Source: a virus. From it: a stretch of DNA of 26,000 nucleotides. Below are positions 20,539-26,000 of this stretch, piece after piece. Numbering within the stretch: the stretch's first letter is position 1; the number at the start of each line of letters is the position of its first letter. Under the pieces are notes generated by a model. The model was not told the DNA's origin. It saw only the letters and a list, made by a program, of their open reading frames with translations, and made no database searches. Both the position numbers and the translations under genes were made by a program. The stretch lies in UHGV virus genome UHGV-0185509; one strand, written 5' to 3'.

Positions 20539-22401
20539 ATGACAGACATTACAGCCAATGTGATCGTATCAATGCCTTCGCAACTCTTCACTATGGCGCG
20601 TTCTTTTAAAGCCGTAGCCAATGGAAAAATTTATATCGGTAAAATTGACACTGACCCGGTAAATCCTGAAAACCAGATTCCGGTTTATGTAGAGAACGAA
20701 GACGGCTCTCACGTTCCTGTTTCGCAACCAATAATCATTAACGCTGCCGGATATCCGGTATATAATGGACAGATTGCCAAGTTCGTAACTGTGCAAGGCC
20801 ATTCCATGGCTGTATATGATGCGTATGGTTCGCAGCAGTTCTATTTTCCGAATGTGCTGAAGTATGACCCTGACCAGTTTAGACAGGTTATAGAGGGGCC
20901 TGACGGGGCTTACGATGTTGGGTACACAACAGCATTTAATAATAATGAGATAACCGTTGGAGATGCGCTCGATAATAAAATTCCTAACATTATTGGTAAC
21001 GTTGATGTGCCACCAACTGGGTTTATTTTCCATCCATTCACAAGATATAGCGGAGACCATGACTTGCGATATATCAACGGTGGAAACCCCAAATCAATTA
21101 AAAGGCTGAAGAAGACGGGTAATGCCACCGTCACGCTCAACCCTATCACCACTGAGGGTTCCAGCCCTAGCAAGTTAACCGTCGATACAGTAGGGTACGT
21201 TAACCCGGCAAACGCCGACCCCGACGGCACTACATTTCCGGCAGGAATAAAAATTGATGGTGTCACATTTGAAGGGGACGATGCCGGCGGGCAAAGCGGT
21301 TTAACAATACTGCAAGGACACAATTTTCAGATTAAAGAATGCGGATTCTCTAAAACAAAGATTGCGATATGGTTACGTGACGTATGGATGTCGTCGGTAA
21401 GAGACTGTAGTTTGTTCGGACAGTACCTACAAGAGGGTGGAACCAGCATGACTATTGAGAATTGTTATGCGACAGTGCACGACAGCACGGTGACTCCTGG
21501 AGCATTCAGAATTTCAAATCTTCAATACTCATCCATGTCTAGCTGCGCTTCTGATGGCACCGTAAATACAGCGTATTACTTCAACGGTAATAACGGGCTT
21601 AAGGTAACGAGTTGCGGTTCGGAAGTACCAACAGCTCTAGACAAAAACTACGGGACAGCCGCGCATTTCGAAGAAAGTAACGAGATGATACTTGATAATT
21701 TCTACACATTACCTGCTTCGGGTAGCAATATTCTGTTCTCTATAAAAAACAACAACGATCTTGTATTCAATAATACTATGGTTTACGGGGATCCGGCAAA
21801 ATGGAGTCGGGATTTCTGGTTACTTGGTTCCGGGAATAAAGTAGTTGTTAATGGGGGGACTTTTGGGAATACAGGGCGTATCCCGTTGGTGGCAACTAAC
21901 GCTGCTGGTAACACGTTTATCTACAACAGTACTGATGGCAATAGCTACATCGCTAAAACGACTGGCGCGGCTATCACTGTAACCCTTGAACCTAAATTCC
22001 TTAGCAAAACTCTGGATCTTACATCCGATGTGGTCTTTGCAAATAGTGGCCCAGTTACTGGTGGAACCAAGGACATTAAGTTCACTAAGAGTGGTAACAT
22101 TGCTACGGTAGAATTTAATATCACCATCCCTGACATATCTGGCAAAGTAGGTCAACTTTTGATAAATGGCTTACCTTATGCTGCGGCACAGTCTGGTAGC
22201 GGTAGTGTATCTATAGCTTTAGGTCTTGCCACAGGGGTTGGTAATATCACTTGTGTAATACTAAGGGATGACAACCAAATTATGTTTTACAAGTCAACTA
22301 CAACTAGTGGTGTGTCTTCAGCTCTAGGTCCATCTGACTTAATTAATGGGAGTAGTTTAAGGGGGAGCATTACTTACTCCTGCGTGTCTGACTGGGATTA
22401 A
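20539..22401 (+). CDS. gp9: tailspike protein: P22 gp9-type N-terminal head-binding domain fused to a different receptor-binding (beta-helix) body
   Basis: 620 aa; first ~110 aa ([11 protein letters not shown]...[38 protein letters not shown]...[16 protein letters not shown]...NVLKYDPDQ) match the P22 tailspike N-terminus, while the remainder has no resemblance to the P22 body that I can see. Confidence 0.9.
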
Positions 22402-22482: not shown

Positions 22483-24006
22483 TTATTTGCAACTAATCTT
22501 TCTAAAATCAATGACAAAATACTTGTCATTCACAAATGTATTATACATTTGTCCTTTTGAAACCATTTTCATTTCGCATGGGTTAATCGTATAATTGGCA
22601 TTCTCTATGGGATTCTGTATACCAAACATTTTTATCATACCTTTTCCCCACCATCCATTATTATAGTAAAGAGGAACAACTGAAGAGAGGGAGGGAAATC
22701 TTCTTATAGCATTATCTCTTTGCGGAGATGAAGGTTGCACTCCAAAAAACATGATGGTTTTTGTGGCCTCTGGATCGTTACGTGATATTTCCTCTGCCAT
22801 GATATGCGATAAAAAATAATCAAATTTATTTTGAGCGTCCATAGCACTTCCAAATGCGTATGAGTAGACTAGAAGCGGTAATACGAAAGGTGTTGATAAT
22901 ATGATATGATGCTTAAAGTTTTTAATTAAAGAAAAATAAGATATGCCAACTAATAGCATAAATCCGCTAAACGAAGCCATGACTCTATCTGAGAATACTG
23001 GATATTTTAATAAACATAAATGTATTGCAGCAAATGCCATTATTATTAATGGAGATATCAATAACAAAATAATTATAATTAAATTTAAAAATGATCTTCT
23101 GTTATTGTTAAATATTCCAATGGCTGTCTTTATAATAAATATTGAAACTGTAGCCAAGGAAATTAATGAAAGTAATAGCATGCCATTAACATATAGCAAC
23201 ACCATTGATAAAAATGCCAATGCATTATTTATGAAAATATTAATTCCTTCACGATCAATACTTATTAATGTGGAGTGCTCAATGTTATATTCTCCGAATA
23301 CGAAGTGAGCTGAAATGTTGCTATATATAAAGTATCCAACAAGTAATTGCGCAGCTCTACATAAAATATCTATAATTAGGTCTAGTTGTTTTGTGTATTG
23401 CTTATTAGATGCGTTAATTATGAATTCTATTACTGCCAGACACACAAAAAATCCTATAACAGCCTGGTACAAGCAAAGGGATATAACAACGAAAGAAACT
23501 GAGAAAAACCATTTTAATAATTTTGAACTGTACGATAGGAACGGGAGCAGCATAAGTGACAACGCTGCTATCATTGGTACAACATCGAATTTATAAGATA
23601 AATTTTCAAGCAGAAAAGGGTTTGCAATAATTAGAAAGCATATAACGGCTGAAGCTATGCTATTAAAGTGGTTAAGGTTTGAACGAAAATATAAATATGC
23701 GCATATAATAAAAATTATTATCCCGATAAATAATGTAAGCGGAGAAATGTCAATTGTTGACTCTGCATTCAAGTTAACTAAAGACATTAATAGGTCCGCA
23801 AGAGGTCTTCCATTTGAACTCCATCCAAAATAACCATCCTGTGCTCTTCCAAGATCGTCTATGTAGTATCTATTGGCAATTATTATCGGGATGATATAAA
23901 TAAAACAAAGAGATGATAAATATATTAAAAATAATTTACCTTTTGAGTCCATATGATATTTAATAATTTTATGGCCAGTAATTAATTTGCTCATTGTATA
24001 ATCCAT
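22483..24006 (-). CDS. serotype-specific O-antigen glucosyltransferase (GtrC / Gtr-type family), polytopic membrane protein
   Basis: 507 aa, multiple hydrophobic segments, very AT-rich; sits immediately downstream of gtrA-gtrB in the same orientation, the canonical position of the type-specific gene. Confidence 0.8.
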   Translation of the reverse strand: MDYTMSKLITGHKIIKYHMDSKGKLFLIYLSSLCFIYIIPIIIANRYYIDDLGRAQDGYFGWSSNGRPLADLLMSLVNLNAESTIDISPLTLFIGIIIFIICAYLYFRSNLNHFNSIASAVICFLIIANPFLLENLSYKFDVVPMIAALSLMLLPFLSYSSKLLKWFFSVSFVVISLCLYQAVIGFFVCLAVIEFIINASNKQYTKQLDLIIDILCRAAQLLVGYFIYSNISAHFVFGEYNIEHSTLISIDREGINIFINNALAFLSMVLLYVNGMLLLSLISLATVSIFIIKTAIGIFNNNRRSFLNLIIIILLLISPLIIMAFAAIHLCLLKYPVFSDRVMASFSGFMLLVGISYFSLIKNFKHHIILSTPFVLPLLVYSYAFGSAMDAQNKFDYFLSHIMAEEISRNDPEATKTIMFFGVQPSSPQRDNAIRRFPSLSSVVPLYYNNGWWGKGMIKMFGIQNPIENANYTINPCEMKMVSKGQMYNTFVNDKYFVIDFRKISCK

Positions 24007-24023: not shown

Positions 24024-24935
24024 CTATTTTTTAATGATATATCTTGGTCTTGATTTAGACTCTATATATATTCTACCTATATACTCACCAAGAACCCCTA
24101 TCCCAATCAGTTGTACACCGCCTAAAAAGAGGATTGATACAAGTAAAGATGGGTATCCACGAACAGAATTACCAAAAATTAGAGTGTCAAAAATCATCCA
24201 TGAGCCATATATAAATGCTAGCCCAGCGACTAATAAACCAATATACGTCCACATGCGAAGAGGGAAGGTCGAGAAGCTCGTGATACCCTCAAGTGCTAGG
24301 TTCCACAATTTCCATCCATTGAATTTAGAGTCACCGGCAACACGTTCTGCCCTCGCGTATTCCACAACATCTGTGCGACCGCCAACCCAACTCAGCACAC
24401 CTTTCATAAAAAGGTTGCGCTCTGGCATAAGCTTAATGTTTTCGACAACTTCACGGCTCATTAACCGGAAATCGCCGACATTCTCCTCGATCTTTGGGTT
24501 GCTTATTTTGTTGTGCAATTTATAAAACCACTCTGCCGTTTTGCGTTTCAGTCGTCCGTCAGTTGAGCGATCAGTTCGCTTAGCCAGCACCATATCAGAG
24601 CCTGCCTGCCACTTTTCGATGAGGTGGGGAATAACCTCAATCGGATCTTGCAGGTCAACATCAATTGGAATTACAGCATCTCCGGTTGCATGGTCTAGCC
24701 CTGCAAACAATGCTGGTTCTTTACCAAAGTTTCGTGTAAATGACAGCGGAACAACCAGCGGGTCTGAAACAGCCAGAGCATTAATAATTGACTCCGTAGC
24801 GTCTTTGCTTCCGTCATTTATGAAAACAATTTCCACTTCATATGGCTTCAACTCTTCGAATTCACGTACCGTTTTATAAAAAATTGGTATCGCTTCTTCT
24901 TCATTGAAGACAGGAACTACAAGAGATATCTTCAT
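24024..24935 (-). CDS. gtrB: bactoprenol glucosyltransferase GtrB (GT2 family)
   Basis: 303 aa; N-terminus ([19 protein letters not shown]...INDGSKD) is a GT2 signature with DxD-like region ([10 protein letters not shown]) and two C-terminal TM helices, as in GtrB. Confidence 0.9.
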
Positions 24936-25294
24936 TTCGTATCCCTAAAGACAATGAACTTTGAATAGACGAAACCGCACACCAGACTGATGGCGGAGAA
25001 GGTGATAAGAGTGATAATTGGAGGAAATGAGCACTTATCAGCAGCCCATCCAACAGTAGCACTCAGTGTTCCCATGAACCCGACATATAACATGTAGCGC
25101 ATCGTTGTAGTCGATGCTTTGAATGTGAATCTTGCATTCGCGAAGAAGCTAAAACTCACAGCCACAACGAAACCTGCGAAGTTTGCAAGAGCTTGATTGG
25201 TATGCGCGCCATAGATACATACACCAAAAACCACCCAGTGTATAAGTGTGTTCAGCACACCAATCGAGGTGTACTTTGCAAATAGCTTTAACAT
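24932..25294 (-). CDS. gtrA: GtrA flippase-like small membrane protein
   Basis: 120 aa, four hydrophobic segments, start motif [20 protein letters not shown]; overlaps the gtrB start by 4 nt; first gene of the three-gene gtr operon. Confidence 0.85.
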
Positions 25295-26000
25295 TTATTT
25301 AATCAATGAGTTCTGAAAGGCATGAAGTCTATCATCCAAGTCTCAATCGATCGATGATTTGCTGTGGTTGTTGAGACAAAACTGAGAAACATAAGTCTTT
25401 GCAATGGCTTTCAAGGCTTTGTGCTATTCGATTGTGGTTGAGGCTGATCACTCCACCTTTTCATCAAGCCAGTCTACCCACCACTGCATCATGTCTCTGC
25501 ATTTATCGTAGTTGATGCATCACTATCACCCTGTAATGGCTTATTACTGGTTTGCAGACAGGTAGGCATGAACAGATACCTGCGCATGAAGATGGAACTA
25601 GTCCGGATGCGATATTTTTGGTGATCACGTACATCATCAACGAAGCGCGTTATGGTGAGTTTTATGACTGCCAAGTAATGTGAAAATTGCGATGCGTACC
25701 AAATTGTGTACCAAATTAAAATCATAAACCATGAAACCCTTACTCATGGCTGTTCTCAGGCTGGGTGCGTGTAATCGTGAAACAAAAAGGTAGATTGTTG
25801 CTTACCGTCATTCATCATTAGGTTAAATCCGTTATTTCTGCTGTATGCCAGAGTACCAAATATCACAACGCTAATCAGCTTTAGAGCGACAATTTGGCAG
25901 CGTGTGGAAACAGATAATGTCAGATTAAAATGAGATAAATGTCACATTTTCTTGCACTTTATTCCAGCCAGTTCATCAGGATTTCCGTAAAAAGAACAGC

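Follow-up and report, generated by a model that had tools for sequence, protein, structure and literature searches.

The DNA analysed here, a stretch of 26,000 nucleotides (the window), is a mosaic colinear with a ~37-kb P22-like prophage of E. coli LD39-1, from the nin region to the right end. The genes that precede the attachment (att) region are listed with the other features in Table 1. Their order, tailspike–gtrCBA–att, is that of P22, where attP follows gtrA. An attachment site after the gtr operon, as in P22, had been put forward in the original prediction, and the gene order agrees with it. The ~700 bp beyond gtrA had also been described as lacking a convincing ORF. The region 25295–26000 indeed holds none, a 78-aa minus-strand ORF being unconvincing (see below).

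Table 1. Positions of genes, attachment-site elements and repeats in the window.
Feature	Position	Strand	Remarks
Tailspike gene	20539–22401	+	
gtrC	22483–24006	−	
gtrB	24024–24935	−	
gtrA	24932–25294	−	ORF, last phage gene before the att region; Pfam GtrA_DPMS_TM, E = 9e-14
Phage P arm of attR	25551–25769	+	Recombination-module DNA common to Sf101, 2851/1717-type Stx phages and LD39-1
Candidate arm-type integrase site P1, TGCGTACCAAAT	25693–25704	+	Copy 1 of the original prediction, 25696–25705
Candidate arm-type integrase site P2, TGTGTACCAAAT	25705–25716	+	12-bp period with P1; copy 2 of the original prediction, 25708–25717
Truncated sbcB 5' stub fused to phage DNA, MMNDGKQQSTFLFHDY-THPA*	25756–25818	−	Translation compared with the native K-12 N-terminus
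att core, TGTAATCGTGAAA	25770–25782	+	12/13 match to the published CGTAATCGTGAAA
Host DNA: first 12 sbcB stub codons (minus strand) and sbcB–dacD intergenic region	25783–26000	.	Annotated as sbcB in E. coli
Host sequence GTACCAAAT upstream of the sbcB start	25853–25861	+	Treated as a chance match made by a SNP at 25856

The last 706 bases are made up of pieces with different relatives, and some part of them matches 5418 of 5426 complete E. coli genomes. Positions 25295 to ~25420 resemble the region upstream of gtrA in Shigella Sf phages. Sf101 matches from 25551 to ~25799, while Stx2c/Stx1a prophage records match over the whole of 25551–26000, host flank included. A scan of 25250–26000 with the sigma-70 consensus found no promoter.

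Two remnants were recognized in this region. Upstream of gtrA, at 25372–25432, lies a fossil P arm of P22 type. Its elements TGAGACAAA (25372–25380) and TGAGAAACATA (25383–25393) align with the tandem short repeats TGGGACAAA/TGGGACATA of P22, which have an 11-bp period and lie on the gtrA side of the P22 core; they are followed by CTTTGCA...CAAGGCTTTG repeats common to P22 and Sf101. The second remnant, at 25555–25683 on the plus strand, is the 3' end of a humD/umuD-like S24 peptidase gene and stops 12 nt before the first candidate arm site. In two E. coli genomes its homologue carries a PGAP annotation as a HumD or S24 pseudogene, and differences among the window, Sf101 and phage 1717 look coding-like in this frame. 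The 44-aa stub has no Pfam match, the fragment being too short for one.

The attR junction in sbcB

The P arm adjoining the junction is counted from window position 25551 (query position 257), where homology to Sf101 and to Stx2c/Stx1a phages sets in. From there to the core, identity is 100% with LD39-1, 90.8% with Sf101 and 82.2% with phage 1717. The core itself is a known element. A 13-bp core, CGTAATCGTGAAA, has been published for phages 2851 and Sf101 (PMC4159516), and the same 13 bp are annotated as an insertion duplication in NC_011357. The window differs from it in the first base, which is T as against C. The core is common to attP, attB, attL and attR, and is present in the attB of K-12 and in the attP of Sf101. 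In attB, GTTTC and GAAAC form an inverted repeat on its two sides, around GTAATCGT; these pentamers are probably the core-type sites, with GTAATCGT as the likely 8-bp overlap region.

In the window, DNA to the left of the core is of phage origin and DNA to the right is of host origin. The 218 bases on the right have matches in 5416 of the 5426 complete E. coli genomes, none above 93.1% identity, and are annotated there as sbcB. Their minus strand encodes the native N-terminus of exonuclease I (MMNDGKQQSTFLFHDY), which runs into four phage codons and a stop; the junction falls after codon 16 of sbcB, within the core. The window and LD39-1 are 100% identical over 25551–25782 and 92.2% identical over 25783–26000. 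This step in identity at 25782 shows the same phage in two host backgrounds, so that the window ends in attR, composed of P arm, core and B'. On these sequence comparisons, the right end of the window is the attR of a P22-like, gtrABC-carrying prophage inserted into sbcB codons 13–16, next to dacD.

Phages 2851, Stx2c-1717 and Sf101, as well as HK544 and mEp234, have the same core (12/13) and the same insertion point at the 5' end of sbcB. Their P arms are homologous to that of the window (82–91% identity) and contain both GTACCAAA units. The P arm of LD39-1 matches that of the window at 100% identity, and the LD39-1 integrase is 98–99.5% identical to that of the sbcB-integrating phages.

Several expectations change with this assignment. 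The repeats had been taken to mark the proximity of attP, whereas the site belongs to an integrated prophage; attP in place of attR is rejected, as host DNA lies to the right of the core. The failure to find a core derived from a tRNA 3' end was correct, because the target is the 5' end of the protein-coding gene sbcB; a tRNA-type core is likewise rejected, the core consisting of sbcB codons. The original prediction had proposed to look for integrase past position 26000. Judging from LD39-1, in which dacD begins ~27 bp beyond the point matching the window end, dacD lies there, and int is to be expected ~37 kb away at the other prophage end. An integrase and core elsewhere, with no further copies of the repeat near them, had been named as the case against arm sites. 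The closest relatives show otherwise: a distance of 53 bp separates core and pair, and another three copies are found no more than 50 bp from the int ATG. With this assignment the prophage's right end is fixed to the base and its target named, which points annotators to int and attL.

The P22 comparison, which rests on repeats seen in the P22 sequence, separates the two attachment sites despite the shared gene order. The P22 core is derived from a tRNA gene (thrW), as against the 5' end of a protein-coding gene here, and the motifs differ too, the arm repeats of P22 being TGGGACA. As to a P22-type attP, only degenerate TGAGACA/TGAGAAACA relics at 25372–25393 were found, with no tRNA-like core. 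The arrangement suggests that a recombination module of sbcB type was grafted onto a former P22-type att region.

The stub of sbcB left at attR has 20 codons and keeps the native promoter along with the first 16 codons of the gene. At the other end of the LD39-1 prophage, in attL (locus L005, 11461–11550, minus strand), the int-proximal arm provides a replacement start and N-terminus for sbcB, MTDTDKQPTFLFHDY..., which joins the gene in frame at the core. As a result of this fusion the sbcB of the lysogen is annotated as an intact 474-aa gene. The phage, as read from LD39-1, thus rebuilds the gene that it interrupts, and such a replacement of the 5' end would require a promoter and a ribosome-binding site on the phage arm. 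A terminator-like hairpin with a T-run was seen on the minus strand between the core and the arm sites (25727–25751). It is weak, with three G–C pairs; phage 1717 conserves it only in part and SEN34 lacks it. The hairpin could block read-through from the orphaned sbcB promoter into gtrABC. With a flank no more than 93.1% identical to any complete E. coli genome and an arm 100% identical to an E. coli prophage, the host probably belongs to an Escherichia lineage other than E. coli, or to a close relative.

The tandem repeats and their probable integrase

The repeats reported originally were all recovered. The 10-mer GTACCAAATT occurs twice on the plus strand ahead of the core and the 9-mer GTACCAAAT recurs beyond it. 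The 26-kb window contains three exact matches to this 9-mer; the mean after dinucleotide shuffling was 0.13 and none of 100 shuffles reached three. The true unit of the pair is 12 nt, repeated head to tail as TGCGTACCAAAT and TGTGTACCAAAT (P1 and P2 in Table 1). The pair lies in phage DNA, 53 bp from the core as counted from the end of the second 10-mer (25717), and the third copy lies in host DNA. By their position relative to the core, the three copies are not one feature.

Both units are conserved in the attP of Sf101, in the Stx2c phage 1717 and in the LD39-1 prophage. In Sf101 attP the motif GTACCARAY is present five times on one strand, twice to the left of the core and three times to the right, the right-hand copies standing at −50, −39 and −16 from the int ATG. 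Integration divides the set in LD39-1, which carries the tandem pair in attR and the three int-proximal copies in attL; the 49.5-kb LD39-1 locus contains six GTACCANA sites, five of them in attL and attR and one elsewhere. The LD39-1 integrase adjoining attL combines an N-terminal Arm-DNA-bind_3 domain (PF13356, E = 8e-18) with a tyrosine-recombinase catalytic domain (PF00589). Given that P arm and core are 100% identical to those of LD39-1, the window's own int, which lies outside the window, is presumably of Sf101 type.

To extend the comparison, integrase relatives were gathered from annotated phages and IMG/VR, giving 37 distinct int-upstream regions with integrases 59–99% identical. GTAC was found at −50/−49, −39/−38 and −16/−15 from the start codon in 37/37. 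Contigs with an intact attP (Sf101/HK544-type, and lineages with integrases at 73% and 61%) have an extra pair at −300 to −302 and −288 to −290. Pairs with 12-bp spacing are also seen in ENT39118 (−280/−268) and phi296 (−296/−284). When eight P arms were aligned (integrases 49–99% identical), two GTAC blocks were the only invariant blocks, P1 aligning with the first; the flanks could not otherwise be aligned. After GTAC the bases vary by lineage: the Sf101 type has CCARAY, and A-rich variants occur in the others. Among close relatives, whose arms are 82–91% identical, the sites are only slightly better conserved than their flanks; it is the more distant ones that give the strong footprint. The N-terminal ~67 residues are the best-conserved part of the integrase, which fits a shared GTAC recognition core.

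The pair goes with int and core and not with the cargo beside the arm, which is gtrABC in the window, oac in Sf101 and genes for T3SS effectors in Stx phage 1717. A role of the pair as gtr regulatory elements is rejected on this ground.

A rival reading takes the pair as a tandem duplication without function, or as part of a small gene. The 78-aa minus-strand ORF (25489–25725) spans the repeats in the window, in LD39-1 and in Sf101, where it is the hypothetical gp17. Nevertheless, it has no Pfam match, lacks its start in phage 1717, and shows mostly non-synonymous differences between the window and Sf101; it also overlaps the plus-strand humD-like remnant, in which the substitution pattern is coding-like. 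With no family, a lost start and non-synonymous drift, the ORF is rejected as a real gene. A functionless duplication is disfavored by the positional conservation of GTAC, since elements with unalignable flanks still have GTAC-N8-GTAC at the corresponding place. Taken together, an origin of the pair in duplication or in a small gene is exceedingly unlikely.

An experimentally studied parallel for the pair is the cryptic prophage KplE1 (CPS-53) of K-12. Its attR starts with the tandem units GGGTAAAATAGC/GGGTAAAATATT, with a 12-bp period and ~50–75 bp from the core. A 135-bp KplE1 attR starting at this tandem pair recombines in vitro with a 220-bp attL in the presence of IntS, TorI and IHF (PMC3509656). 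IntS and TorI repress intS, whose promoter overlaps the arm-type P' sites of IntS (PMC2951348). The KplE1/HK620/Sf6 module (IntS, TorI, argW) is alike in having tandem units of 12-bp period at the start of attR and further attL units over the int promoter. As in KplE1, transcription of int in the Sf101-type module leads away from attL; this int encodes a P4-like integrase and is uncoupled from the recombination directionality factor, a small protein of wHTH/AlpA type.

The two modules also differ. Int and IntS are only 21% identical, and the motif is GTACCARAY in the Sf101-type att as against GGGTAAAA in KplE1. All five sites are direct repeats in the former, while one P' site is inverted in KplE1, and the targets are the protein-coding sbcB and the tRNA gene argW, respectively. 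Judged by its layout, the module works like that of KplE1 but stands outside the IntS lineage. Compared with P22 and lambda, in which int is transcribed towards att and together with xis, int of the Sf101/2851 type is transcribed away from att. The P22-like frame in which the repeats had been placed therefore stands for the position of att after gtr and falls for the recombination module, which is of Sf101/2851 type with a P4-like arm-binding domain and an int directed away from att.

With a pair laid out as in KplE1 attR, a motif present on both arms and conservation in position, P1 and P2 very probably represent arm-type sites on the P arm for a tyrosine integrase of Sf101/2851 type. The original prediction of integrase arm sites is thus upheld for the pair, while the third copy, in host DNA, has to be set aside.

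Tandem direct repeats on a single arm are frequent targets of excisionases, and the pair could accordingly serve the directionality factor, a 63-aa AlpA-like protein, in place of integrase. In Sf101 and LD39-1 an AlpA/HTH_17-like gene adjoins int, on the other strand and convergent with it, although the Pfam matches are weak and below the family cut-offs; in both, the int ATG has the three int-proximal sites no more than 50 bp away. The motif, however, is found on both arms in a 2+3 layout reaching the int start codon, and its GTAC core tracks the strongly conserved N-terminal domain of Int. In KplE1, moreover, the five TorI sites are confined to attL and the tandem units are arm-type sites of IntS (PMC2951348, PMC3509656). 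Binding of the pair by the directionality factor is for these reasons very unlikely.

If P1 and P2 are arm-type sites, the N-terminal Arm-DNA-bind_3 domain would bind the GTACCARAY repeats, by analogy with lambda and KplE1. Two sites would lie on the short arm (P1 and P2) and three on the long arm, beside the start codon of int. The long arm belongs to the opposite prophage end, which is expected ~11–12 kb upstream of window position 1 in the order rest of sbcB, core and an arm of ~215 bp, with copies reading GTACCAGAT, GTACCAAAC and GTACCAAAT predicted at −50, −39 and −16 from the ATG of a 392-aa integrase. The C-terminal integrase domains would bind and cut the core, the overlap probably being GTAATCGT. 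Bridging of arm and core in a bent nucleoprotein complex would then allow integration (attP × attB), and the same complex with the small AlpA-like directionality factor would allow excision (attL × attR). The three int-proximal sites probably let integrase repress its own promoter, as IntS of KplE1 does. We infer the binding of integrase to the sites, the bending of the DNA and the autoregulation, of which bending and autoregulation are drawn by analogy. This heterobivalent-integrase logic is that of lambda; it was reportedly treated by Ross and Landy in 1982 and, along with P22 att, by Smith-Mungo and colleagues in 1994.

Searches for accessory elements gave little. No match to the IHF consensus WATCAANNNNTTR with up to one mismatch was found in 25650–25900, a consensus scan being a weak test and an IHF site being common but not universal. 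The same scan (up to one mismatch) gave no match in SEN34 attP, and in Sf101 attP the sole match overlaps an arm site. A sigma-70 consensus scan over the int-proximal sites of LD39-1 found no promoter.

The recombination module and its core have already been published. Searchable papers describe the 13-bp core and not arm-type sites; no binding or recombination experiment on an Sf101-type integrase was found in the searchable literature, and the word 'arm' is absent from the Sf101 paper (PMC4159516). Arm-type sites are an expected feature of this known kind of system, whose anatomy is otherwise that of textbook site-specific recombination. The candidate sites provide a testable arm-site definition (consensus approximately YGYGTACCARAY, 2+3 layout) for the integrase of Sf101 and of the sbcB-integrating Stx2c/Stx1a phages.

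The host-side copy of the repeat

The third copy of the 9-mer is located 35–43 bp upstream of the sbcB start codon. At its position K-12, LD39-1 and the O157 flank of phage 1717 carry GTATCAAAT, which differs in one base. The match depends on the C at 25856, which counts among 17 differences from LD39-1 (17–19 against three E. coli flanks) in a flank that is ~92% identical to E. coli. In a genome-contig scan with the 17-mer AGAGTACCAAATATCAC, no enterobacterial species representative carried the sequence and 25 unrelated chance matches were returned. LD39-1 is a lysogen of the same phage and has GTATCAAAT, so the third copy is not linked to lysogeny. We treat it as a chance match, in which a pre-existing 8/9 resemblance would have been made exact by one lineage-specific SNP.

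All three copies might still form one functional cluster, in which integrase would use the host-side copy too, say as one more arm site on the B' side of attR. By sequence the third copy is a good site (agaGTACCAAATa, compared with agcGTACCAAATa at an int-proximal site of LD39-1 and Sf101). It is oriented as in the pair and starts 71 bp from the core, and an exact 9-mer in a 218-bp flank is a priori unlikely (~0.002 by our own estimate). The copy nevertheless lies in host DNA, with GTATCAAAT in the K-12, LD39-1 and O157 flanks, and the SNP at 25856 is only one among the 17 differences from LD39-1 and was seen in no enterobacterial species representative. To our knowledge, attB sites need no arm sites, as is established in lambda biology. 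A single cluster of three functional copies is therefore extremely unlikely, and the chance match is the reading kept here.

A bolder reading, and a distinctly long shot, has two separate parts. In the first, the SNP at 25856 would have given this host lineage a sixth arm-type site, perfect in sequence, on the host side of attR and within the sbcB/dacD promoter region. Were integrase to bind the third copy, it could alter the efficiency of excision or let a prophage integrase regulate host promoters. In the second, the GTAC-centered 2+3 layout, in fixed register with the int start codon, would mark a large clade of enterobacterial integrases, Stx phages included, as a general feature not described so far; if true, it would help to predict att sites and int autoregulation.

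Related integrases with different cores

Some integrase relatives keep the layout of arm sites while their cores differ. They comprise an IMG/VR contig (L073, Int 73% identical), Salmonella phage SEN34 (L006, 60%) and the Klebsiella type (L098/L007, 61%). SEN34 has the same sbcB core. The core of L073, CGTAGTCGTGGAA, is a synonymous variant of the same sbcB codons, and the Klebsiella type has an unrelated core beside an 'intracellular protease' gene. These relatives could serve as a small natural series for a change of core specificity at fixed arm recognition.
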